In this document: piece by piece, positions 50,815-63,039 of the stretch
Numbering within the stretch: position 1 is the first letter of the stretch
How the letters are laid out: every line of letters starts with the position of its first letter
Program-made: the position numbers and the translations under genes
Source: Candidatus Buchananbacteria bacterium
GTDB taxonomy: Bacteria > Patescibacteriota > Patescibacteriia > CAIXNZ01
Assembly (NCBI GenBank): GCA_014729025.1
Contig: WJKP01000045.1
Span: 20,015 to 84,014 of the forward strand
Reading direction: 5' to 3'
DNA: 64,000 nt
The notes under the pieces: generated by a model
Databases searched by the model: none
What the model was told of the DNA's origin: nothing
The model's input: the letters and a program-made list of their open reading frames with translations, nothing else

Positions 50815-51783
50815 TTATTTTAATAATTTATTAACTCGTTTAATAATTTCTTGATAATTAATTTTATATTTATTTAATAATCTATCTGCACTGCCGGACT
50901 CGCCAAAACTGTCAGGCATACCTATTACCTCAAGAGGCACAGGATAATTTTGAGTCAAAACTTCAGCGATAGCGCTACCTAATCCTCCATTAACCTGGTG
51001 TTCTTCAATAGTCACAATTTTATTTGTTTTTTTAGCCGAAGCAATAATTGTTTTTTTGTCAATTGGTTTGATTGTATGACAATTAATTACTTCCGCTTTA
51101 ATTTTATTTTTAGCCAAATTTTCAGCTGCCATCAGCGCTTCATAAACCATAAGACCGCAAGCTATTATTGTCACGTCTTTACCTTTTTTTAAAACTTCAG
51201 CCTGGCCGATTTTAAAAGATTTTTGAGTATCAGTAAAAACCGGTGATTTAGCCCGGCCATAACGAATATAAACGGGGCCTTTAATTTTAGCAGCTGCCCT
51301 AACAGCTTTTTTAGTCTCCAAATAATCACTGGGCGCAATTACCGTCATATTCGGTAAAACTCGCATAATTGCCAGATCTTCCAACGCCTGATGCGTCGCA
51401 CCATCCGGTCCGACATTTAAACCGGCATGCGAACTGACTATTTTAACATTAGCATTATTATAACAAATTGAAACTCGAATTTGTTCCCAATTTCTACCCG
51501 GACTAAAAACCGCAAATGAGCACATAAACGGAATAAAACCGTCCAAAGCCAAACCAGTTGCCACACCAGCCATATTTTGCTCAGCCACGCCAACTTCAAA
51601 AAAACGTTTAGGGTATTTTTTGCCAAAGTCCAAACAGCGGGTTGATTCAGCCAAATCTGCTGAAACCGCAACAATCTTCTTGTTCTTTTTACCTAATTCT
51701 AATAACGCCTCGCCAAACGCATCACGGCAAGCTTTGCTTGAAATTTGAGAATTGAGATTTGATATTTTTTTGTTATTTGTCAT
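50815..51783 (-). CDS. Transketolase, C-terminal (pyrimidine-binding) subunit
   Basis: AFGEALLELGKKNKKIVAVSADL, FEVGVAEQNMAGVATGLALDG and HAGLNVGPDGATHQALEDLAIMRVLPN are present. Confidence 0.85.
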   Translation of the reverse strand: MTNNKKISNLNSQISSKACRDAFGEALLELGKKNKKIVAVSADLAESTRCLDFGKKYPKRFFEVGVAEQNMAGVATGLALDGFIPFMCSFAVFSPGRNWEQIRVSICYNNANVKIVSSHAGLNVGPDGATHQALEDLAIMRVLPNMTVIAPSDYLETKKAVRAAAKIKGPVYIRYGRAKSPVFTDTQKSFKIGQAEVLKKGKDVTIIACGLMVYEALMAAENLAKNKIKAEVINCHTIKPIDKKTIIASAKKTNKIVTIEEHQVNGGLGSAIAEVLTQNYPVPLEVIGMPDSFGESGSADRLLNKYKINYQEIIKRVNKLLK

Positions 51784-51793
51784 TTATTATTTA

Positions 51794-52627
51794 TTATTTC
51801 AAAGCGCCCTGTAACTCTTTCAATGCCCTCTCAGCCTCAATTTCAGAAGGTACTTTGCCGTGCCATTGCCATTTGTTTTCCATAAAACTAACACCTTTCC
51901 CCGGAATGGTATGGGCAATAATAACTTTGGGTTTATTTTTTATTTGCTTAGCTTTTTCTATGGATTTTAAAATTTGCTTCATATCATTACCATCAATTTG
52001 CTGCACATGCCATTTAAAAGCCTGATATTTTTCATATAAATTATTCAAAGGCATAATATTTTTTGTAAATCCGTCAATTTGTATCATGTTACGATCAACA
52101 ATAAAAATTAAATTATCTAATTTATATTTAGCAGCCGCCATAACAGCTTCCCAAGTCTGACCTTCATTATGTTCGCCATCACTGGTTATACAATAAACAA
52201 AATGCTTCTGTTTTTTTAATTTAGCTGCCAAAGCCATGCCAACTGCCACTGAGACACCCTGGCCCAAAGGACCAGAAGAATGCTCTAAAGCCGGGAAATC
52301 ATGATATGAAGGGTGTCCTTGCAAAGGAGAACCTAATTTTCTAAGTGTTTTTAATTTACTAATGGAAAAATAACCACTTCTGGCCATAGCGGCATAACGA
52401 ACAGGCACAACATGACCGTTTGATAAACATAAACGATCCCTTTTTTCCCATTTTGGCTTTTTCGGATCATGATTCAAAATATTAAAATACAAGGCAACAA
52501 AAATATCAGCCAAGCCCAAAGAACCGGCTGAATGGCCTGAACCTGCCTCAGCCAACATTTTTATAATATCTTGTCTAATAATATTAGCCTTTTCTTGTAA
52601 TTGCTTTACTTTATAACTTTTTTTCAT
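51794..52627 (-). CDS. Transketolase, N-terminal (TPP-binding) subunit
   Basis: GSGHSAGSLGLADIFVALYF, DRLCLSNGH and ITSDGEHNEGQTWEA are present. Confidence 0.85.
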   Translation of the reverse strand: MKKSYKVKQLQEKANIIRQDIIKMLAEAGSGHSAGSLGLADIFVALYFNILNHDPKKPKWEKRDRLCLSNGHVVPVRYAAMARSGYFSISKLKTLRKLGSPLQGHPSYHDFPALEHSSGPLGQGVSVAVGMALAAKLKKQKHFVYCITSDGEHNEGQTWEAVMAAAKYKLDNLIFIVDRNMIQIDGFTKNIMPLNNLYEKYQAFKWHVQQIDGNDMKQILKSIEKAKQIKNKPKVIIAHTIPGKGVSFMENKWQWHGKVPSEIEAERALKELQGALK

Positions 52628-52630
52628 AAA

Positions 52631-53071
52631 TTAAGCTGAATCAATCTTATTTTCTTTAGCCCATTTGGGGGTTACATACAAAGAACAATGACATCTACCC
52701 CATATTTCAATTTCACCCATATATAAATAACAAGGACAAATTATTTTTCTATCAGCCTCGGGATTATTGGATAAAACGCGACAGGGACAATAACATTGCT
52801 GGCCTTCTTTTAAATATTTTCCCATAGATTCAGCTAAACCTTTTAAAGTTTCTTCATTGGGATTTAATTTAATTTCATCTTGATATTTTGTTGCATTCAT
52901 CCATTTAACCTGGCGCTGCCAAGTATCTTTAAAAAATTCGAAATTAAGACTGTCAGGACTTATCTGATTAAAACTTTTCTGATTATGACAAAAAGGACAT
53001 TCACAAGGAGCTTTTTTATCACGATAAATATAACCACAAACTGAACATCGATATATTTTTATATCAGTCAT
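52631..53071 (-). CDS. Rubredoxin-domain fused ferredoxin:thioredoxin reductase catalytic-subunit-like (FTR-like) protein
   Basis: The N-terminal rubredoxin knuckles are CSVCGYIY...CPFC. The C-terminus CYCPCR-x14-CPC-x12-CHCSLYV matches the FtrC CPC...CPC...CHC signature. Confidence 0.65.
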   Translation of the reverse strand: MTDIKIYRCSVCGYIYRDKKAPCECPFCHNQKSFNQISPDSLNFEFFKDTWQRQVKWMNATKYQDEIKLNPNEETLKGLAESMGKYLKEGQQCYCPCRVLSNNPEADRKIICPCYLYMGEIEIWGRCHCSLYVTPKWAKENKIDSA

Positions 53072-54504: not shown

Positions 54505-56526
54505 TTATAATTCAATTATATCACCTTCTTTAACATTATTATTATTTTCCTCTGCTGAAGCCAGTAAATTAGCCGCTGGCAATTTTTCTTTTGTCGAGCC
54601 TTTTTCTGCTTTTTCTGCTTTTTCTTGAACTTGTTGTGAAGATTCTTTTTTCTCCGGAGCTAACACTTTTTCTTGTTCTACAGATTCTTTTTCTGCTTCA
54701 ACCGGTTGTGTTTTTTTAATTTCCTTTTGTATTTCTGGTCTTGAAATTTCTTGTTTGGTTGGCTGTACTGGCTTAGTTTCTTTTATTGTCTTTTGCTTGG
54801 CTAATCCTATGGGCTTATCTTCTTTAATTGGTTGGATTTTTTGAGGTTCAGACTGTTTTGCTGATTCCGATTTTTTTTCTTCAGGTGATTTACCTTTAAA
54901 ATCAACGGTTTTTTGCGAAATCTGTGATAAAGAAACAGCTTCTTGTTGTTGTTGCGTTTTTTCTTTACTCACTTCATCAGGTTTAACACCTATTTCTCCG
55001 CGGCGAGCTTTTTTAAGGCATTCTTTACAAAAAACTGGACGCACATTATCTGGCTTAAAAGGTACTTCAATTTCTTTTTTACAGCCAGAACAAACAGCTG
55101 GCCAGCCCTTATCTTTCTTTTTTTCATTTGATGTGGTTTCCGCCTCTCCTTGTTTTAATTTTTGCTCATTTGACTGTTGAGAAATCAGCTTACCTTTTCC
55201 TTCAACTTCCTTTTTGTCTTCAGTTATTACACCACTCCATCTTTTTATTTTATCTTCAACTACATTTTTGGGTTTAGCGTATCTTTCCCTGGAAACATTA
55301 ATAACTTTTTGTTCGTTACCCAAAGAATCACTATAAACCGGGGGTAACCCTCTAGCTGAAAATGGTTCAGAGGCTATCCCGTCAATCATTAATTTTAAAT
55401 AGATATGAAACTTTGGCAAAGCGACCAGATCTTCCTGAGTTAAATAAGGCATAAACTCTTTTTCTAAAAATTCAGCATCAGCTGCACCGACCCGAAAACA
55501 CATTAAAGTGCCGACATTACCAAAAACTGCCGGTCTAACTACCTCGCCTAATTGTTCTATATATTGATGAGCAATAATTAAATTCAAGCGATACTTACGA
55601 GCCTCTGATAAAATATCAGCAAAAGAATCGGTCGCAAAATTCTGAAATTCATCAACATATAAATAAAAATCTTTCCGATTATCTTCTGGAATATCAACCC
55701 GGCTCATAGCTGCCAACTGAATTTTTGTAACCATCATGGCACCAAGTAAAGCAGAAGCGTCTTCACCAATTCTCCCCTTGGAAAGATTTAGAATTAAAAT
55801 TTTATTTTCATCCATTACTTTTCTTAAATCAACTGCTGATTTAACCTGACCGACTACATTACGAATTAATGAAGTTGATAAAAACTGCCCCACCTTGTTT
55901 TGAATCGGTGAAACAACTTCTTGTAAAACTCTTTCATTCCATCTGGGAAATTCATCAACCCAAAAAGAACGAACTACCGGATCAGTAATTTTAGCTACTA
56001 CTTTTTTACGATATTCTTTATCAACCAACATACGGTTAATTCCCAATAAAGTACTATCTGGATATTCCAAAAGAGCCAAAATCGCATTTCTTAAAATATA
56101 TTCCAAACGAGGTCCCCAAGAATCAGCCCATAACTTTTTAAATACACCAATTAAACCAGAAGCAACCAAATGACGATGCTCAGAAGAAACTTTTTCCAAA
56201 ACATTAAATGAAATGGGATAATGCAAATCAGACGGATTAAAATAAATAACATCATTAATACGACTGCTTGGTATCCAGCTCAACATCTTTTCGGCAGTAT
56301 CACCATGAGGATCAACATAACAAACCCCTTTACCGGCAATAATATCCGAATAAACCATATTTTCAATCAAAGTTGTTTTCCCCATACCGGTTTTACCAAT
56401 AATATAAACGTGACGACGCCGATCATCTTCTTTAATCCCAAAAATCCGCTCTCTGTTTCTAAAAGTTGTTACAGCAAAAGGTGTGATTCCGCTTTCCACT
56501 GCTTTTTTAATTTGTTCTGTTACCAT
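54505..56526 (-). CDS. VirD4/TraG/TrwB-like type IV coupling-protein ATPase domain protein. It has no N-terminal TM, a C-terminal Zn ribbon and a K/E-rich tail.
   Basis: Walker A is HVYIIGKTGMGKTTL and Walker B is FYLYVDEFQNF. RKYRLNLIIAHQYIEQL and an all-alpha-domain-like AVFGNVGTLMCFRVGAADAEFLEKEF are present. The C-terminal zinc ribbon is CSGCKKEIEVPFKPDNVRPVFCKECLKK. Confidence 0.55.
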   Translation of the reverse strand: MVTEQIKKAVESGITPFAVTTFRNRERIFGIKEDDRRRHVYIIGKTGMGKTTLIENMVYSDIIAGKGVCYVDPHGDTAEKMLSWIPSSRINDVIYFNPSDLHYPISFNVLEKVSSEHRHLVASGLIGVFKKLWADSWGPRLEYILRNAILALLEYPDSTLLGINRMLVDKEYRKKVVAKITDPVVRSFWVDEFPRWNERVLQEVVSPIQNKVGQFLSTSLIRNVVGQVKSAVDLRKVMDENKILILNLSKGRIGEDASALLGAMMVTKIQLAAMSRVDIPEDNRKDFYLYVDEFQNFATDSFADILSEARKYRLNLIIAHQYIEQLGEVVRPAVFGNVGTLMCFRVGAADAEFLEKEFMPYLTQEDLVALPKFHIYLKLMIDGIASEPFSARGLPPVYSDSLGNEQKVINVSRERYAKPKNVVEDKIKRWSGVITEDKKEVEGKGKLISQQSNEQKLKQGEAETTSNEKKKDKGWPAVCSGCKKEIEVPFKPDNVRPVFCKECLKKARRGEIGVKPDEVSKEKTQQQQEAVSLSQISQKTVDFKGKSPEEKKSESAKQSEPQKIQPIKEDKPIGLAKQKTIKETKPVQPTKQEISRPEIQKEIKKTQPVEAEKESVEQEKVLAPEKKESSQQVQEKAEKAEKGSTKEKLPAANLLASAEENNNNVKEGDIIEL

Positions 56527-56538
56527 ATTTAAATAAAA

Positions 56539-58221
56539 TTAATCAATAAATGGAATATTACCAGGAATAGCTCCTGTCGATTTATCTGATTCAGAATCCT
56601 CTTTTTCTTCTTTTAGTTTTGTAGATTCTGTTTCTTTTTTGGTTTCCTTTGCTTTTTGGGGTTCAGCTTCTTGTTTTTTTATTTCTGCTAATTTTTCTTT
56701 TTCTTCTTTAGCTATTTCTGCCAATCTATCTTCTCTGACCGGCCGTGTCTTTTTAAATTTATCTTTATCTTTGGCAAATTGCATTTCAAAATCATCACTA
56801 TCATAATCAAAAGTCGGCTCAAATTGTTTTTCTTCTTCAGGTGTTTCTTGGTGAGCTTGTTCTGCCCTATCTTCAACCGGTTTTAATGGGGCTTCTTGAA
56901 CGGGTAACCCAACCGGCGCTGCTGCTTTGGTAAATTCTGTTTTCTTTAATAAAGGCGCTTTAACATACATACTTGGGAAATGCCACAAAGAAGCTAATTC
57001 TTCACTACATAATGGTTTAGCTGGTACACCAACAACTGTATCGCGGTTAATATAAGCTCGAATAAATTGATTTTTACGCCATTTTTTACGAGCTTGAATT
57101 AAAATATATTGAGGTGAATTAGTGCCAGTTTCTTTTAACATCGGCCTTAAACCATTAGTATTGACATCTGTCCATTGCTTTATAGAACCAATCATCGCAT
57201 TAACACCCAATGTTTTATTCATTTTATCTTTTTCTGCTACATAAAGATAACGTATCTTAGTATTAAAAGCCCATTTGGCTGTTTTTCTTTCAATACCATC
57301 AACTATTTCTTTTTGAGCTGAAGTTAAATTCATTATACTGGGCTGTTTTTCATCTACTTTAGCCTCTTCACCGCCCCCTAAATTCACCCCAGCTAATTGA
57401 TCTGTAAATTCATTTATAAAATCAGCTGGAAATTTAAACAGACTTCCAAAAAATCCTTGTTTTGGCTTTGATTTAATACCTATAACTTTATTTACCTCTT
57501 CTTTACCTTGTTTAATGCCCCAATCAACCGCCAAAGGAGTTAAAATATATTGAACCCAAATTTGCTCGCCTGGACCTATAGAACTCATTGTTTCTAATAA
57601 TGCTGCCATAGGATCAACAAAAGTTTCAGAAAAACGGTGCTCAAATTTTTGCCATGATTTTAAAGGAATCAACGGATTAGCTGAAAGTGTAAATTCTACA
57701 CCCCAAATATCATGTGTATCATTGGGATAATCTTTAGGAACAGAATTAACATAATCTTCAACCTCAGTAATTTCCGCATCAGGAAATTGAGAATAAACAG
57801 CCGCCTCAACCAAATTACGCCAATCACCTGGACAACGAATTAGAAACTGAATATTGCCTTCAATACTAACCAACTCAACTGATAATGAACGCATGAACTC
57901 ACCTTCAATATATGTCCCCCATTTAGTAAAAGTTGTATGAGCGCCTTGTAAGTGATCAAAAAAGTTTTCCATCGCCTGAATACTTTGCTCATTTCTTTTA
58001 GGGACATCTATAGCCAAAATTACCGGACCAGGCTGTTTACTAGCCCATTTTCCGCCAATATATAAACGATATTCAGGATATATTAAATAACGCAAAACAA
58101 TATAAACAAATAAAACCCAGAGCCAATACTTAAATAACAGGATATATAATATCCCAAAAGTTGATTGACCTTCAAACTGGGCTAAAAATTGATAAAAATA
58201 AGTTAAATCTATTTCAATCAT
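56539..58221 (-). CDS. hypothetical membrane-anchored protein, probable partner of the downstream coupling ATPase
   Basis: The N-terminal TM is ILYILLFKYWLWVLFVYIVL. A ~400-aa globular domain and a K/E-rich tail follow. Only 12 nt separate it from the ATPase gene. Confidence 0.45.
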   Translation of the reverse strand: MIEIDLTYFYQFLAQFEGQSTFGILYILLFKYWLWVLFVYIVLRYLIYPEYRLYIGGKWASKQPGPVILAIDVPKRNEQSIQAMENFFDHLQGAHTTFTKWGTYIEGEFMRSLSVELVSIEGNIQFLIRCPGDWRNLVEAAVYSQFPDAEITEVEDYVNSVPKDYPNDTHDIWGVEFTLSANPLIPLKSWQKFEHRFSETFVDPMAALLETMSSIGPGEQIWVQYILTPLAVDWGIKQGKEEVNKVIGIKSKPKQGFFGSLFKFPADFINEFTDQLAGVNLGGGEEAKVDEKQPSIMNLTSAQKEIVDGIERKTAKWAFNTKIRYLYVAEKDKMNKTLGVNAMIGSIKQWTDVNTNGLRPMLKETGTNSPQYILIQARKKWRKNQFIRAYINRDTVVGVPAKPLCSEELASLWHFPSMYVKAPLLKKTEFTKAAAPVGLPVQEAPLKPVEDRAEQAHQETPEEEKQFEPTFDYDSDDFEMQFAKDKDKFKKTRPVREDRLAEIAKEEKEKLAEIKKQEAEPQKAKETKKETESTKLKEEKEDSESDKSTGAIPGNIPFID

Positions 58222-58324: not shown

Positions 58325-59395
58325 TTATATTAATTCATAACGTCCATTTTCTAGTCTTTTAAACTTATCTTTGTTCATTAAGACCAAAGTAATGGTTGTT
58401 TTTTGCACTAACCGCTGTTTTAAAACTTCTTCAGCTAATTCTTTTTTGGACATCGGGCCATTATTCTTTAAGATGTTTTCAATAATATCAGCAACCGTAC
58501 CTTCTTGATAACCCCATTCACGTAAAGCATAAATACCACGGCCAACCAGTACATATTTATCATCTAAAATTAATTCGTTATGAACTGTTGCCGGATGAGC
58601 TTTTTTTCTATCAAAATTAGCCTGATTAATCAATTCAGCCAATTCTTCGAAATGTAACGGACGATTTTCTCTTAACATTACCAAATAAGCTTTATCAGTC
58701 ATTCTTTTGGGTTTAATAGTATTCCAGTGATAAACACCCCATTGACCTAAAATATTTCTATTTAAATCTTGTCTAATACTTAATAAAGCTTCTAAAATTG
58801 CCAAATCTTCGGCTTGTCTTTCTTTTATATAATCGTAATATTTATGTGATTGAAATTGAGACGATAAATCCTCTAAATGTAATGGCTTACCATGATTTTC
58901 AATTAATTCTTTCAAAGCCGAAGCAATAGCTACTGCCTGGTCCAAATCAACATCTTGCAAGGCAAAAACTACATGGTGATCATTTAAATCAACGACTCTT
59001 TTAATATTACCGGCAAAAATATTAGCCAAAATAAAATTCAAAGCTTTTTCTTCTACTTCAAGCTGTTCTTGTAATAATTTTTCCTGTAAATGCCATTCTG
59101 CCATAATACCGCCATGTGATTTTAAATAATCTAAAATAATAGATTCCAGATCACGAACCGGTAATTTGGCTCTATCATAATCCATATTTTTAATTTTTTT
59201 CAAACCTTCTCTTTCGATTTGTCGAACACGTTCACGCGTAATATTAAAATCCTTACCAATTTGCTCCAAAGTGTGTTTTGGATAATCTGCTAAGGCATTT
59301 CTTTTTTGCAAGACTTCTTGTTCTCTATCAGATAAATTAGCCAATAAGGCATTAACCAAGTCTGCATAACTAATTGTTTTTATTTTTGCTGTCAT
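58325..59395 (-). CDS. Sigma-70 region-4-like HTH protein with C-terminal HARE-HTH/winged-helix domains (no region 2)
   Basis: The N-terminus LSDREQEVLQKRNALADYPKHTLEQIGKDFNITRERVRQIEREGLKKIK matches sigma region 4.2. The C-terminal HARE-HTH signature is KAHPATVHNELILDDKYVLVGRGIYALREWGY, with a second HARE-like element KDKFKRLENGRYELI. Confidence 0.6.
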   Translation of the reverse strand: MTAKIKTISYADLVNALLANLSDREQEVLQKRNALADYPKHTLEQIGKDFNITRERVRQIEREGLKKIKNMDYDRAKLPVRDLESIILDYLKSHGGIMAEWHLQEKLLQEQLEVEEKALNFILANIFAGNIKRVVDLNDHHVVFALQDVDLDQAVAIASALKELIENHGKPLHLEDLSSQFQSHKYYDYIKERQAEDLAILEALLSIRQDLNRNILGQWGVYHWNTIKPKRMTDKAYLVMLRENRPLHFEELAELINQANFDRKKAHPATVHNELILDDKYVLVGRGIYALREWGYQEGTVADIIENILKNNGPMSKKELAEEVLKQRLVQKTTITLVLMNKDKFKRLENGRYELI

Positions 59396-59570
59396 ATTAT
59401 TTAAATTATAATAATTATTGTTTATATAAAAAATACAAAGTATAAGTTATTTACCTATCTTTAATCTATATCATAGTATAACATATATAAAAAAATATGT
59501 CAAGGTTTTGCTAATAATTGTATTATAACTTATAATTTACATTTTGGCAAGTCTCTTGTCTAATTAATGT

Positions 59571-59599
59571 ATATTAAAATATTTTATTAAAATTGTCAA
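59571..59599 (-). promoter_or_regulatory. Sigma-70-like promoter (TTGACA-N17-TAATAT) on the minus strand, upstream of the HTH gene
   Basis: On the minus strand, ttgaca is at 59594-59599 and taatat at 59571-59576. It lies immediately after the terminator at 59611-59685. Confidence 0.45.
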
Positions 59600-59610
59600 G
59601 AAATTTAAGT

Positions 59611-59960
59611 AAAAAAAATATTCCCGACCACTTTATCTCATTATTATTCGCTTTGGCCTGCGAACTAGAGATTTTCATCGGGAATGCTTAGAATTTTCTT
59701 TTTCTCATCTTGTTTTCCCCCTTTTAGGTTGAATTTGCCAAAAATTGTTAGCGGGGGAAAGATTTTACCCACGAGCTCGTTATAGCCCCCAAGTTCGGCC
59801 ATAACATCATTGGGCAATTCTTCCTGCCATTCGCCAAGCAGTCTATCCCTTTCTGCTTTGCAGGGCTTCTGTAACAATACTAAACGGTCTTAAAATTACA
59901 GGTCGCTTTAGTAGCTGTACGATGATTAAAGTCATCGGTAATTTTAACAGTTTGTCTTGT
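59611..59960 (-). ncRNA. Candidate structured RNA of unknown class. It is a ~45% GC island ending in an intrinsic terminator.
   Basis: The 180-nt core counts 81/180 G+C, against ~30% around it. The stems are tttccccc/gggggaaa (59714-59722/59751-59759) and attcccga/tcgggaat (59620-59627/59678-59685), followed by U9 on the minus strand. No RNase P, tmRNA or SRP consensus blocks were found by eye. Confidence 0.3.
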
Positions 59961-59970
59961 TTATTTAATT

Positions 59971-60990
59971 TTAGCTCTTTTTTAAGCGCCAGTCTAATTT
60001 TTGCCAAACAACCAATAATGGCGCAGCAATAAAAATTGAAGAATAAGCACCCAATAATATACCGGTAACCAAAACTAAAACAAAATCACTAATAGTTGTC
60101 CCGCCAAAGATTAAAATAGCCAGTAAAACCAATTCAGTAGTTAAAGAAGTATTAATTGAACGAGTAATTGTTTCGCGTACACTTTTATCAACAATTTCTT
60201 CAAATTCACCTTCATATTTATGCAAATTCTCCCTGATTCTGTCAAATACAACAATCGTATCATTAACCGAATAACCCAAAATAGTCAATAAAGCAGCTAC
60301 AAATGGCGTATTTACTTCCAAACCCAAATATTTGCCTAAAAATATAAAAATACCTAAAGTAATTAAAATATCATGAAATAAAGTAATAATTGCAATTATA
60401 CCATATTTCCAAGAACTGACCGGATACGAAACTTTACGAAAAGCCCAAGCAATATAAAAAACAATAGCAATCAAAACTAATAAAATTGCCCAAATTGACT
60501 TAGATTTTAATTCCTGTCCAATTGACGGCCCAATTGCTTCAAATCTTTGTTCAATTACTTTATCTTCAGATCCACTAACTGTAACTGCCTCGGCTTCTAA
60601 TTCCATTGTACTATTTTCAGCATCAGTAGTAATTTCAATATTTTCCTCACTTTCTTCAAGATCAGACTTTCTCTGCTCGTCCTTATCTTCTACATTATTT
60701 AATCTATTTAATATCTGCTGATGAGTTTCTTCACTTATTTCTTTAAATCTTAAAATATAACCATTTTCACCTGTTGGCTGTATATTTAATCCTTCTAAAT
60801 TTAAATCAGCCAATGATTGTTTTACTTGCTCAATATCTGGCCCTTGCTCTTTATATTTGACTTCCAATAAACTGCCACCTGTAAAATCAATGCCCAAATT
60901 CAAACCCCAGGCAATCCAAATCAAAATAGAGGTGAGTACGATCACACTCGAAATAGTAAAAAATATTTTTCTTTTATTAATAATCTTCAT
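59971..60990 (-). CDS. secF: Protein translocase subunit SecF (with an acidic insertion)
   Basis: GIDFTGGSLLEV and C-terminal TMs (YSVNDTIVVFDRIREN) are present. An acidic insert DKDEQRKSDLEESEENIEITTDAENSTMELEAEA is present. Confidence 0.85.
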   Translation of the reverse strand: MKIINKRKIFFTISSVIVLTSILIWIAWGLNLGIDFTGGSLLEVKYKEQGPDIEQVKQSLADLNLEGLNIQPTGENGYILRFKEISEETHQQILNRLNNVEDKDEQRKSDLEESEENIEITTDAENSTMELEAEAVTVSGSEDKVIEQRFEAIGPSIGQELKSKSIWAILLVLIAIVFYIAWAFRKVSYPVSSWKYGIIAIITLFHDILITLGIFIFLGKYLGLEVNTPFVAALLTILGYSVNDTIVVFDRIRENLHKYEGEFEEIVDKSVRETITRSINTSLTTELVLLAILIFGGTTISDFVLVLVTGILLGAYSSIFIAAPLLVVWQKLDWRLKKS

Positions 60991-60993
60991 ATT

Positions 60994-63039
60994 TTATTCA
61001 CTTTCTTGTGTCTTTTTATACAAAAATAACCAATTAATTTTATTAATAAAATTCCAGTTGATGACTGATTGTAAAACTGTCTTAGTTACAAACAATGCTG
61101 AAATCATAGAAATTAAAATACCAATCAATAAAGTTAAAGCAAAACCCTGAATAATACTTGTGCCAAACCAGTATAAAATAACACAAGTAATCAAAGTCGA
61201 GATATTACCGTCACGAATAGACGGCCAGGCGCGCTCAAATCCTTCGCTAAGCGCTGAACCTAGTGGTTTGCCTAACTTTAATTCTTCTTTCATTCTTTCA
61301 AAAATCAAAACATTAGCATCCACTGCCATACCAACTGATAAGATAAAACCAGCTATGCCAGCCAAAGTTAAAGTGACTGGAATTAATTTAAAAATAGCTA
61401 AAATCACTATCCCGTAAATACATAATGAAATAACCGAAATTAAACCGGGTAACCGATAATAAATTATCATAAACAAACCAACTAAAATCAAACCTAAAAT
61501 TGCGGCCTCTAAACTCTTAGTTAAAGATTCTTGCCCCAAACTGGCGCCAACGGTTTGCTGTGAAATAATATCAATTGGTACTGGCAAGGCACCGGCATTG
61601 AGGCGTCTGACTAAAGTTTTGGCCTCTTCTAAGGTAAATTTGCCAGTAATCACCGCTTTACCACCGCTAATTTTTTCATTGACCCTGGGTAAGCTAATAG
61701 GCTCACCATCAAGAAAAATACCAACGACCTGCCCGACATTACGAGCAGTTATTTCCTCAAAAAGTTGTTTTCCTTCATCATTAAACTGCAATTCAACGTT
61801 TGGTTCATTGGTATTAGGATTAAAACTAACCTGTGCGCCGTCTAATTGTTTACCGGAAAGTCCAGTATATTCAAACTGTTCCTGTGGCACAATATCTGAT
61901 TTTTTTTGTTTTTTAATTAAAACTCTGTAAACTTGAAAAGTTCTTTCTTGTTTTTCATCTACTTTATGAATCAAATGAAAACCAAATTGTGTTTCAACAA
62001 TATCAGAAATTTGACCATTTTCTAAATTAAACGCAACTTCTTCAAATTCAGGCACCATTTGTCCTTTACTAAAAAAGCCCAAATTACCACCACTAGTATC
62101 AGCGCCTGGTTCGGTTGAATTTTCTTTGGCTAATTCAGTAAAATTTTCAGGTGTAGCCTTTTCTTTTAATTCCTCAATCTTGCCTCTGGCATCTTCTTTG
62201 GAAATATCTTGTTCGCAACGAGTCGCGCCTTCATAACAGATTAAAATATGACTGGCTTGGACCTGTTTTTCTGTGCCGTTTTCACCACGTTTTAAAATAT
62301 TATAACCCTCACTATTTTCAAAAATCTGCCCATAAATATCACCTGGGGCAATTTGTTTAATTGGCGTTAAAAATTCGCTTTTAGGTCCGCTTTCACTAAT
62401 AAAACCTAAATCACCACCATCTTCTTTAGTTGCCAAATCTTCTGATTTTTCTTTGGCAATTTTCGAAAACTGATCAGGATTATTTTTAACTTCTTGTAAA
62501 ATTTCTTCAGCTTTTTGTTCTGCTTGTTGATTATATTCTTCTAATTGTTGCTGCTGGTCTTCGCTTAATTCAACTTCACTACTGGCTTGTTCTTTAAATT
62601 CCAATAAAGGTGTTTCACCGATCATTTTTATTGCTTCATTGACATCTTTAATGCCGGCTAATTCAACAATTACCCTATACTGTTTACCTACTTTAGTTGT
62701 CTGAACCAAGGGCTCGGACACGCCAAACGCATTAACTCTTCGTTCAATCACATCGCGAACACCTTCAACTGCATCGGCTTGATCTTTAGTCGGCACCTTA
62801 GAAACATCAGCATTATAAACCAAATGCGTGCCACCCTGTAAATCCAAGCCTAAAACAAACGATAAATCAGGATAATGAGGCAAATCAAATGGTAATTTAT
62901 TATTAGCCCAATCAACTGAATTATTCCAAATTTTGGGATAATCTAAAAAGCCTGCCAGAATTGCCACTAGCAAGATTAAAACTATATATAATCTAATTTT
63001 ATTGCGCTGACTAATTGTTACGCTTGATTTTCTTTTCAT
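60994..63039 (-). CDS. secD: Protein translocase subunit SecD carrying one canonical and one degenerate parvulin (PpiC-type PPIase) domain in the periplasmic head
   Basis: The N-terminus has GLDLQGGTHLVY and the TM core has VDANVLIFERMKEE. The inserted canonical parvulin is ASHILI...SGGNLGFFSKGQMVPEFEEVAF...TQFGFHLIHKV. A preceding degenerate copy is SEDLATKEDGGDLGFISESG...YNILKRGE. Confidence 0.85.
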   Translation of the reverse strand: MKRKSSVTISQRNKIRLYIVLILLVAILAGFLDYPKIWNNSVDWANNKLPFDLPHYPDLSFVLGLDLQGGTHLVYNADVSKVPTKDQADAVEGVRDVIERRVNAFGVSEPLVQTTKVGKQYRVIVELAGIKDVNEAIKMIGETPLLEFKEQASSEVELSEDQQQQLEEYNQQAEQKAEEILQEVKNNPDQFSKIAKEKSEDLATKEDGGDLGFISESGPKSEFLTPIKQIAPGDIYGQIFENSEGYNILKRGENGTEKQVQASHILICYEGATRCEQDISKEDARGKIEELKEKATPENFTELAKENSTEPGADTSGGNLGFFSKGQMVPEFEEVAFNLENGQISDIVETQFGFHLIHKVDEKQERTFQVYRVLIKKQKKSDIVPQEQFEYTGLSGKQLDGAQVSFNPNTNEPNVELQFNDEGKQLFEEITARNVGQVVGIFLDGEPISLPRVNEKISGGKAVITGKFTLEEAKTLVRRLNAGALPVPIDIISQQTVGASLGQESLTKSLEAAILGLILVGLFMIIYYRLPGLISVISLCIYGIVILAIFKLIPVTLTLAGIAGFILSVGMAVDANVLIFERMKEELKLGKPLGSALSEGFERAWPSIRDGNISTLITCVILYWFGTSIIQGFALTLLIGILISMISALFVTKTVLQSVINWNFINKINWLFLYKKTQESE

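Follow-up and report, generated by a model that had tools for sequence, protein, structure and literature searches.

The SecD protein encoded in the window (the whole 64,000-nucleotide stretch of DNA analyzed here) carries an insert that profile and fold matches identify as a genuine pair of parvulin domains within its periplasmic P1 region. The fusion is not rare and defines at least two large SecD families of the Patescibacteria. Judging from the domain content and from known translocon-associated chaperones, the inserted module is probably a foldase or holdase that is tethered to the mobile head of SecD and would act on exported chains as they emerge.

The secD gene and its inserted module

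The secD gene (60994..63039, reverse strand) encodes 681 aa from an ATG start codon. No internal stop or frameshift was found by ORF analysis, and the single continuous reading frame of 681 aa that the earlier note had reported was thereby borne out. The protein was assigned to the SecD family by its Pfam domains and by TIGR01129 (390 bits, the cutoff being 244.4). The partner subunit SecF (339 aa; 59971..60990, reverse strand; TIGR00966, 292 bits with the cutoff at 160) is encoded in the same operon on the same strand after a gap of about 3-4 nt, and secF likewise adjoins secD in the homologous loci L002 to L006. The unusual acidic insert that had been remarked on in SecF is real (aa 98-144; 60559..60699, reverse strand). 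It is a low-complexity segment of 47 aa with 36% Asp plus Glu that is limited to the nearest relatives, being present in the window, in L006 and, with a different sequence, in L002, and absent from L003 to L005. An Rfam scan of the window and a promoter and terminator scan around secDF returned nothing informative.

The framework of the protein is that of SecD, with an N-terminal transmembrane helix, a large P1 region and then a C-terminal helix bundle with the proton-pathway Asp, as seen from AF2 secondary structure and an alignment to 3AQP. The first transmembrane helix (TM1, aa 11-33; 62941..63009, reverse strand) is a hydrophobic stretch, LYIVLILLVAILAGFL, modeled by AF2 as helix H11-33. 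The N-terminal part of P1 (aa 61-151; 62587..62859, reverse strand) contains the GG motif and SecD_1st (Pfam Sec_GG 62-78 and SecD_1st 92-151), ends in the strand LLEFKE and aligns with residues 33-117 of Thermus thermophilus SecDF. The P1 head subdomain (aa 392-487; 61579..61866, reverse strand) covers positions 19-114 of the 114 in the PF22599 profile (E = 4e-28) and aligns with T. thermophilus SecDF from residue 142. The C-terminal transmembrane bundle (aa 489-659; 61063..61575, reverse strand; PF02355) includes Asp574, which corresponds to T. thermophilus D340 in the 3AQP alignment (...AVDANVLIFER...) and is invariant in 61 family sequences. SecD family models scored above their curated cutoffs (in parentheses) at 98 bits for PF22599 (27), 60 bits for PF21760 (27) and 64 bits for PF02355 (20.5). 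Known SecDF structures were matched with an E-value of 5e-22 by Foldseek and 4e-79 by phmmer, and the SecDF proteins of T. thermophilus and D. radiodurans (3AQP, 5YHF, 5XAN) share with the window protein the GG motif, the P1 N-terminal segment, the P1 head, the five/six-helix C-terminal bundle and the transmembrane Asp.

The insert of about 225 aa (residues 152-378) follows the N-terminal segment of P1 and precedes the head subdomain. Pfam domains were found in the order Sec_GG, SecD_1st, two Rotamase matches, SecDF_P1_head (392-487) and SecD_SecF_C (489-659), and two stretches, the better one at 254-362, were matched both by Rotamase_3 (E = 1.9e-40) and by Rotamase (E = 2.8e-39). The Pfam search, one of the checks proposed in the earlier note, placed parvulin and SecD domains on one protein. 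The motifs named there were located as ASHILI (262-267), SGGNLGFFSKGQMVPEFEEVAF and TQFGFHLIHKV (with GFHLIHK at 353-359) and, for the degenerate copy, SEDLATKEDGGDLGFISESG...GYNILKRGE (with GYNILK at 245-250). About 24 aa (118-141) at the beginning of the head are all that T. thermophilus SecDF has in place of this parvulin sequence. On that alignment the insert swaps out this short segment and decorates the P1 head without replacing it.

In the AF2 model of the protein, pLDDT was 85-94 across the module, which matched the PrsA-PPIase, Pin1 and SurA folds in Foldseek searches. With a pTM of only 0.42, the model defines poorly where the module sits with respect to the head and SecY, and its orientation toward SecY is presumed. 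From the topology of SecD, the module would lie on the extracytoplasmic side of the membrane.

Two parvulin copies and their arrangement

The inner copy (aa 259-362; 61954..62265, reverse strand) is a canonical parvulin PPIase domain, with both the parvulin profile and the beta-alpha3-beta-alpha-beta2 fold. In isolation it scored 98 bits with Rotamase_3 and 83 bits with Rotamase, and its model superimposed on the PrsA-PPIase of S. aureus (2jzv) with a target-normalized TM-score of 0.83 (rmsd 2.8 Å) and on Pin1 with 0.75-0.77. The earlier description of an unmistakable parvulin in the periplasmic region of SecD was thus well founded. Residues H264, E310, M328, F332 and H355 correspond, on our reading of the alignments, to Pin1 H59, C113, M130, F134 and H157. 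Both histidines were found in 60 of 60 sequences and E310 in 56 (with Asp in three), and M328 and F332 are also conserved, so that all five occur in at least 56/60; they are retained in fusion clusters of just 36-45% identity. Where Pin1 has Cys113 and PrsA has Asp, most members of the family of the window protein have Glu, an uncommon variant, and other clusters have Asp. The near-invariance of these residues down to 36% identity points to selection on the active site itself, and the inner copy most likely works as a prolyl isomerase of the PrsA/SurA-P2 type that is not phospho-specific. Within it, Cys268 and Cys275 may form a disulfide.

The degenerate second copy that had been described ahead of the canonical one is present as an outer parvulin core (aa 152-252; 62284..62586, reverse strand; pLDDT 85-94), consisting of helices, a GGDLGF strand and a GYNILK strand. 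It alone scored 63 bits with Rotamase (E = 5e-17) over profile positions 9-95 of 97, the N-terminal beta1 strand being missing. The two copies matched each other by BLASTP (E = 2e-7, 30% identity), a similarity far beyond chance. A trailing strand after the inner domain (RTFQVYRVLIKKQ, aa 366-378; 61906..61944, reverse strand; family consensus VSRILI) is degenerate and beta1-like, matching ASHILFRKQ of a related single-parvulin SecD family, and is proposed from sequence and model to complete the outer parvulin as its beta1. Adding it to the outer core improved the profile score by a weak 1.7 bits. The catalytic dual-His motif is absent from the outer domain (152-252 plus 366-378). Position 247, the site of the second catalytic His, is Asn247 in the window protein and Asn, Gly, Tyr, Ser, Phe or Glu elsewhere (His in 0/61), and Arg372 takes the place of His on the beta1-like strand in 47/61 sequences. 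Positions 247 and 372 covary across the family.

The outer parvulin is probably a circular permutant that hosts the inner domain, nested, between its beta4 and beta1 strands. This reading draws on the single-parvulin sister family, on a natural deletion variant and on AF2 secondary structure. The sister family (about 555 aa) has a single permuted parvulin that is catalytically complete; its beta4 His (H231, 120/120) precedes its beta1 His (H255, 117/120), and its AF2 model contains a beta4-turn-beta1 hairpin. In the variant P0046 exactly the 104-aa inner domain is missing and the outer core and trailing strand are kept adjacent. In the window protein, AF2 strands E245-267 and E353-376 are continuous and the registers are consistent with nesting (264+355 = 247+372). 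The copies would accordingly be nested in three dimensions as well. A Foldseek search with the single-parvulin model returned no canonical parvulin among the top 50 matches, a result that fits a permutation and is not evidence for it. The term "tandem" used in the earlier note therefore stands for the presence of two parvulin copies; their arrangement is probably canonical inside degenerate and not a simple tandem.

Two other arrangements were considered and set aside. The strand LLEFKE (145-150) as the missing outer beta1 gave neither an extension of the profile match nor a gain in score, and it is part of SecD_1st and aligns with T. thermophilus residues 111-117. Two side-by-side permuted units with one His each are disfavored, given that the His pair is kept or lost as a unit, that the AF2 strands are continuous and not hairpins, and that P0046 excises a canonical beta1-to-beta4 unit.

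Distribution of the fusion

All of the best 120 homologues (55-89% identity; independent contigs from NCBI, JGI, ENA and Logan) had the same set of Pfam domains, and those with names were Patescibacteria, Parcubacteria or Buchananbacteria. The survey of related genomes that had been suggested extended the fusion to hundreds of metagenomic SecDs, among which all taxon-labeled cases were Patescibacteria save one, probably from a mislabeled MAG. More than 240 listed homologues from the four data sources, on independent contigs of which some exceed 500 kb, share an identical insertion site. An exhaustive HMMER search in which the insert served as the query added 26 or more fusion clusters at the 50% identity level, including P0204, a fused SecDF with the insert, whereas SecD and SecF are separate chains in the window. 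The insertion point is unchanged in clusters of 36-45% identity. A third SecD family of the Patescibacteria has no insert. In a neighbor-joining tree of the SecD backbone each architecture formed its own clade and divergent double forms were deepest, in a tree without support values in which long-branch effects are likely.

No parvulin sequence was found in non-CPR SecDs by a genome scan with query-specific peptides that covered, non-exhaustively, Ignavibacteria, Planctomycetia, Verrucomicrobia, Pseudomonadota and others. Ignavibacteria SecD has an unrelated Ser/Thr-rich segment of about 140 aa at the same junction. The best non-SecD matches to the insert were three-parvulin proteins of 360-415 aa from Planctomycetota, Eiseniibacteriota and Wallbacteria. 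Such stand-alone multi-parvulin proteins were considered as a source of the insert, but their high scores are summed over domains and do not identify any of them as a donor. No other parvulin is encoded in the 64 kb window. PrsA has been annotated in all CPR classes in a freshwater CPR survey (PMC9166423), and the fusion need not, therefore, replace a stand-alone foldase.

That the fusion is an artefact, whether a chimeric assembly or a secD and a prsA-like gene mis-joined by sequencing error, has a negligible probability. The slightly raised GC content of the insert (0.38 against about 0.31 in the flanks) is all that was found in its favor. Against it, the frame is continuous across the ORF, and SecD sequence lies on both sides of the parvulin module, which an end-to-end mis-join could not give. 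The same insertion site on independent contigs from four sources, and in the divergent clusters, leads us to rule out both forms of error.

Public databases name these fusion proteins plain "SecD". Annotation pipelines do the same, and the feature is thus invisible in current genome annotations. No publication on a SecD-parvulin fusion was found in the searchable literature, in line with the earlier impression that this architecture had not been described. A SecD that hosts an unrecognized circularly permuted parvulin, with a canonical second one nested in its beta4-beta1 hairpin in the clade of the window protein, would follow if the proposed topology is true. The series of forms with no insert, a single permuted parvulin and a nested double, together with the inner-domain deletion, would show clearly how domains become inserted, permuted and degenerate within a conserved machine.

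Possible function and comparison with known translocon-associated foldases

The P1 head of SecDF is thought to grip emerging preproteins and to swing away from SecYEG by means of the proton-motive force. Inserted where the N-terminal segment of P1 meets this mobile head, the two-parvulin module would ride on or beside the head and could meet unfolded chains as they leave the SecY channel. There it would keep them soluble and speed prolyl isomerization, and back-sliding would thereby be disfavored. The contact between translocon and foldase, made non-covalently or via a lipid anchor in other bacteria, would be hard-wired. We infer PPIase activity, action on nascent chains and mechanical coupling to head movement, and the analogy with known non-covalent complexes lends plausibility to a foldase stationed where chains leave the translocon. 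The outer parvulin is most likely a scaffold and/or a peptide-binding holdase, comparable to the inactive P1 parvulin of SurA. Counted against the foldase reading are the related insert-free clade of Patescibacteria and P0046, which keeps the inactive outer domain alone; both indicate that isomerase activity is not indispensable.

The module might instead be a non-catalytic platform for substrate capture, a holdase or "longer arm" for pulling, to which isomerization is irrelevant; we consider this a less likely but serious possibility. It would account for an outer domain that has lost both catalytic histidines and is yet retained everywhere, and for the survival of that domain by itself in P0046. 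It also has precedents, in that the SurA P1 and PpiD parvulins are inactive but functional and the chaperone functions of SurA, PrsA and PpiD are largely independent of PPIase activity. It does not sit well with the near-absolute conservation of H264, H355, Asp/Glu310, M328 and F332 down to 36% identity, nor with the conservation of the equivalent histidines in the single-parvulin family. A structural spacer or an element contacting the envelope (peptidoglycan, S-layer or partners) at a permissive hot spot, with no role in folding, appears improbable. The unrelated insert at the same junction in Ignavibacteria and the insert-free Patescibacteria clade would fit such a spacer, whereas a complete parvulin catalytic constellation preserved over wide divergence, in a fold that is specifically that of translocon-associated chaperones, argues against it. 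The tethered foldase/holdase thus remains the reading that we prefer. A stronger form of it, in which the module is coupled to the proton-driven swing so that each PMF cycle presents the chain to the isomerase site and then pulls it off, is speculative and rather unlikely; if true, it would make SecDF an energy-coupled extracytoplasmic foldase, with the first chaperone cycle in that location to run on something other than binding energy.

So far, cooperation between the P1 head and parvulins is supported in E. coli and Mycoplasma by cross-links, AlphaFold docking and EM at low resolution, to which a natural "Rosetta-stone" fusion would add independent evolutionary evidence for such cooperation at the translocon exit. 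It would also offer a compact single-polypeptide system for studying coupled translocation and folding and the driving of ATP-less extracytoplasmic chaperones, and would add to the view of envelope proteostasis in genome-reduced, probably monoderm Patescibacteria.

The fusion is most likely a covalent version of the non-covalent associations of SurA, PpiD, PrsA and the Mycoplasma Mdp proteins with the Sec translocon. SurA has two parvulins, of which P1 is inactive and the other is active. The SurA structure 1m5y aligned over both copies of the insert (query 168-364 against SurA 170-365). Membership in the SurA family was not indicated (NCBIfam NF008038, 70 bits against a cutoff of 394), as just the two parvulins align (query 169-364); the window protein is without the N- and C-terminal chaperone core of SurA, and in place of a beads-on-a-string order its copies would have a nested, permuted one. 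SurA binds the holotranslocon, and AlphaFold models set its two parvulins on the SecDF P1 head (Troman et al. 2023; PMC9987972), so that the same two partners are joined non-covalently there and covalently here. As a soluble protein, SurA attends to the outer-membrane proteins of diderms; Patescibacteria, by contrast, are believed to have no outer membrane (PMC12102498).

In both sequence and structure, the inner domain comes closest to the PrsA lipoprotein foldases of Firmicutes (PDB 6VJ6, 2JZV, 4WO7; E about 5e-16, with the target-normalized TM-score given above). Both have Phe at the position of Pin1 Ser154 and an acidic residue at that of Cys113, features of a non-phospho-specific site. 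PrsA keeps a parvulin on the outward-facing side of the membrane of a monoderm-type cell, as the window protein would. The window protein is tethered through SecD where PrsA uses a lipid anchor; it has neither a lipobox nor the N/C chaperone domain of PrsA, and PrsA models (NCBIfam NF002827, NF002846 and others) reached 77-89 bits against cutoffs of 343-361 through the parvulin part alone, short of membership. In Mycoplasma pneumoniae, which has a reduced genome and no outer membrane, the PrsA-like parvulin proteins Mdp444/436/489 build a dome directly over SecDF/SecYEG that couples translocation to folding (bioRxiv 10.1101/2025.04.25.650208 and 10.1101/2024.09.05.611430). This dome is a non-covalent cage of very large lipoproteins, as against a module of about 25 kDa within the SecD polypeptide. 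PpiD and YfgM, which bind SecYEG in E. coli (PMC9643414), share the principle of a membrane-tethered parvulin chaperone at the translocon exit, but PpiD is anchored by a transmembrane segment of its own, combines an inactive parvulin with a large chaperone domain, and makes contact with SecY and not with SecD.

The secD gene and its insertion site

The secD gene is one unbroken ORF of 681 aa with an ATG start (window 60994-63039, minus strand), as the earlier note had claimed, and secF (59971-60990, minus strand, 339 aa) begins three bases after it on the same strand. Scores against the NCBIfam models were 390 bits for SecD (cutoff 244) and 292 bits for SecF (cutoff 160). Because these family cutoffs are passed, and given the fold, the conserved Asp574 and the adjacent secF, the window protein is a bona fide SecD. 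Pfam domains were assigned to aa 62-78 (Sec_GG), 92-151 (SecD_1st), 392-487 (SecDF_P1_head, profile positions 19-114 of 114) and 489-659 (SecD_SecF_C). Two Rotamase/Rotamase_3 stretches lie between SecD_1st and the P1 head (best aa 254-362; whole-protein E 2.8e-39 for Rotamase and 1.9e-40 for Rotamase_3), where parvulin domains had been proposed from the sequence alone. Every motif quoted in that proposal was recovered at its place, and the degenerate copy described ahead of the main domain scored 63 bits by itself (Rotamase, E 5e-17). The SecD-parvulin observation is confirmed, far beyond chance.

When aligned to Thermus thermophilus SecDF (3AQP), query residues 61-150 correspond to 33-117 and 376-671 to 142-437, so that ~225 residues stand in place of a ~24-residue segment. 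The insert begins right after the strand LLEFKE, the end of the Pfam 'P1 domain, N-terminal' model, and the P1 head comes after. Since the head itself is kept, the insert decorates it without replacing it, a question that the earlier note had raised. By homology with SecDF structures, we infer that P1, and hence the module site, is extracytoplasmic. SecD ORFs of ~650 aa from Ignavibacteria/Bacteroidota MAGs (L007-L019 of the genome scan) carry an unrelated ~140-aa Ser/Thr/Asp/Lys-rich segment at the same P1 junction, as well as an additional ~120-aa N-terminal extension. The junction thus tolerates insertions, and the boundary between P1 N-terminal segment and head appears to be a hot spot for them in different phyla.

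The unusual acidic insert reported in SecF was likewise located, as a 47-aa low-complexity segment of the periplasmic domain (SecF aa 98-144, window 60559-60699, minus strand; 36% Asp+Glu). It is shared by a 92%-identical relative (L006) and, with other sequence, by a Buchananbacteria locus (L002), is absent in L003-L005, and on this comparison looks lineage-specific. Downstream of secF is a 575-nt AT-rich gap (59396-59970, GC ~0.26) with several promoter-like matches on both strands, one 70-aa TTG ORF and no Rfam match. Just downstream of the secDF operon, a 356-aa ORF (58325-59395, minus strand) combines an N-terminal Sigma-70 region 4 with HARE-HTH, an unusual small regulator. The ORF at 54505-56526 (minus strand) encodes a VirD4/TrwB-like ATPase of the type IV coupling-protein class that bears a treble-clef zinc finger; adjoining it is a 560-aa ORF with a Lys/Glu-rich C-terminal tail and no Pfam match (56539-58221, minus strand); many orphan coupling-protein genes distant from virB4 have been reported in Patescibacteria (PMC12102498). 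At 50815-52627 and 52631-53071 (minus strand), transketolase is encoded as separate N-terminal and C-terminal genes, adjoined by a small protein with rubredoxin-like and ferredoxin-thioredoxin-reductase catalytic-chain domains.

Inner and outer parvulin copies

Residues 259-362 form a complete canonical parvulin, the inner copy. H264 and H355 were present in 60 of 60 aligned relatives, the position of Pin1 Cys113 and the PrsA Asp was acidic (Glu310 in 56, Asp in 3), and M328 and F332 were essentially invariant; all divergent clusters keep the His pair and the Asp/Glu. Among solved structures, the PPIase domains of PrsA come closest (E ~5e-16). The AlphaFold model (pLDDT 85-94 across the module) gave target-normalised TM-scores of 0.83 against the S. 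aureus PrsA PPIase (rmsd 2.8 Å) and 0.75-0.77 against Pin1. Sequence, fold and catalytic constellation all identify the inner insert as a genuine parvulin. C268 and C275 occur together in 117 of 120 close homologues, and of the divergent clusters 8 have the two cysteines and 4 have neither; this presence or absence as a pair suggests a disulfide.

The outer copy (aa 152-252) resembles the inner one (30% identity, E 2e-7) but its match to the Rotamase profile does not start until position 9, so that a beta1 strand is missing. Its second catalytic position is never His (Asn247 in 44 of 61). The earlier note had described the copies as tandem: two parvulin copies are present, but five observations favour nesting over a simple tandem order, and an inner parvulin within a permuted outer one is the likely topology.

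One of these observations is a second large Patescibacteria SecD family of ~555 aa (locus L004 and database homologues P0284-P0403; labelled Patescibacteria or Candidatus Kerfeldbacteria), in which a single parvulin with permuted strand order occupies the same site. Rotamase and SecD Pfam domains were found in all of its best 120 matches. Helices and a GGDLGFF strand are followed by the beta4 strand FGYHII (His in 120/120) and then, ~24 residues further on, by the beta1 strand asHILf (His in 117/120); the catalytic Asp is present in 105/120. By these alignments the domain is a parvulin that has undergone circular permutation and retains its full catalytic set. Its AlphaFold model has beta4 (229-241), a break (242-247) and beta1 (248-259), and pLDDT is mostly about 85-91 across the domain. 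A search for 'parvulin' with 'circular permutation' in the full text of open-access papers and bioRxiv preprints returned no paper.

The strand that trails the inner domain in the window protein, VYRVLIKKQ (family consensus VSRILI), aligns with ASHILFRKQ of the ~555-aa family, with Arg372 at the His position, although it adds only a weak +1.7 bits to the profile score of the outer copy (aa 152-252 plus 366-378). Both His are kept in ASHILI and GFHLIHK and both are lost in GYNILK and VYRVLI, as expected if ASHILI is inner and VYRVLI completes the outer domain. Strands 245-267 and 353-376 are modelled as long and unbroken, not as hairpins, so that antiparallel pairing with H264 facing H355 places N247 opposite R372 (264+355 = 247+372 = 619). 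The two positions covary: R at 372 accompanies N, G or S at 247, and V, I or Y accompanies Y or F. The fifth observation is P0046 (580 aa, NCBI, 83-kb contig), which is 88.8% identical to the double-form homologue P0011 minus exactly 104 residues, in frame, from just ahead of beta1 (VSHILI in P0011) to just past beta4 (GFHLIYKT). It retains the degenerate outer core fused to the trailing strand, without the inner parvulin.

Breadth of the fusion

An assembly mis-join or chimera is scarcely credible as the source of the insert. The module has SecD sequence on either side, an arrangement that could not arise from two genes joined in error, and the same Pfam combination recurs in the best 120 database homologues (55-89% identity; NCBI, JGI, ENA and Logan) on independent contigs, some >500 kb. 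These are ~680 aa long with one exception of 580 aa, and those named by their source carry the label 'protein translocase subunit SecD', assigned to Patescibacteria group, Candidatus Parcubacteria or Candidatus Buchananbacteria. When 1.84 billion cluster representatives were searched exhaustively by HMMER with aa 140-400 as query, the top 150 matches included 26 further clusters (50% identity level) with SecD sequence around parvulins. In eleven fusion clusters the module lies at exactly the same point, with insert identity of only 36-45%. One cluster includes P0204, a 1015-aa single-chain SecD-parvulin-SecF (contigs of the cluster reach 617 kb), so the insert occurs in fused SecDF proteins too.

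Related Patescibacteria SecD backbones (60-66% identical) have no insert (436-506 aa; labelled Portnoybacteria, Falkowbacteria or Patescibacteria), the single permuted parvulin or the double form. Each architecture formed its own clade in a rough neighbour-joining tree (360 backbone columns, no support values), which does not order gain and loss; P0046 lies beside P0011, pointing to recent loss of the inner domain. The genome scan, which covered one genome per GTDB species, relied on peptides specific to the query and was not exhaustive; among the non-CPR SecDs that it retrieved, none had parvulin sequence. The closest relatives (L001 and L006; CAZHFK010000044.1 and CAZHFK010000031.1) come from one MAG with SecD and SecF 92-93% identical. 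It is labelled 'uncultured Gammaproteobacteria bacterium' and, given its gene content and the other relatives, is probably a mislabelled Patescibacteria bin. A Buchananbacteria MAG was 71% identical.

Public databases already contain the fusion sequences under the plain name 'SecD'. In line with the earlier note, neither a SecD-parvulin fusion nor a permuted parvulin was found described in the full text of open-access papers and bioRxiv preprints; an account in a subscription journal is possible.

Proposed function and relation to known translocon chaperones

The module probably serves as a tethered foldase/holdase on chains leaving SecYEG, with predicted real isomerase activity. Besides the P1 head, one polypeptide would combine a catalytically active isomerase of PrsA type with the degenerate outer domain, which may act as a scaffold or holdase, like the inactive P1 domain of SurA. 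Weighing against certainty, the AlphaFold model (pTM 0.42) does not fix the orientation of the module, and the no-insert clade and P0046, which lacks the active domain, indicate that some backgrounds can do without the activity. A capture platform with no catalytic role, against which the conserved catalytic residues of the inner copy speak, is an unlikely reading but one to be taken seriously; a structural or envelope-contact element is very improbable. In the current view (review PMC6028853), the P1 head of SecDF binds the chain as it emerges and swings it away from SecYEG, driven by the proton-motive force. A foldase cycle coupled to that force on the swinging head is doubtful. Stand-alone PrsA annotations have been reported in CPR (PMC9166423), so the fusion does not necessarily stand in for PrsA.

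The natural fusion makes the coupling of translocation and folding directly testable and would be somewhat surprising to a Sec specialist, while leaving current models standing. Other parvulin chaperones meet the translocon non-covalently: PpiD/YfgM sit on SecYEG (PMC9643414), SurA binds the holotranslocon, and in all five AlphaFold models of the complex both of its parvulin domains rest on the P1 head of SecDF (PMC9987972), and Mycoplasma pneumoniae PrsA-like lipoproteins cross-link to SecD in a folding dome over the translocon (bioRxiv 10.1101/2025.04.25.650208, 10.1101/2024.09.05.611430). In the Patescibacteria SecD, by contrast, the contact would be permanent. The window SecD fell far below the cutoffs of the PrsA, SurA and PpiD models, was matched only across its parvulin part, and lacks their defining chaperone domains and anchors. 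It is not an orthologue of PrsA, SurA or PpiD; it would act as they do but is no member of their families.
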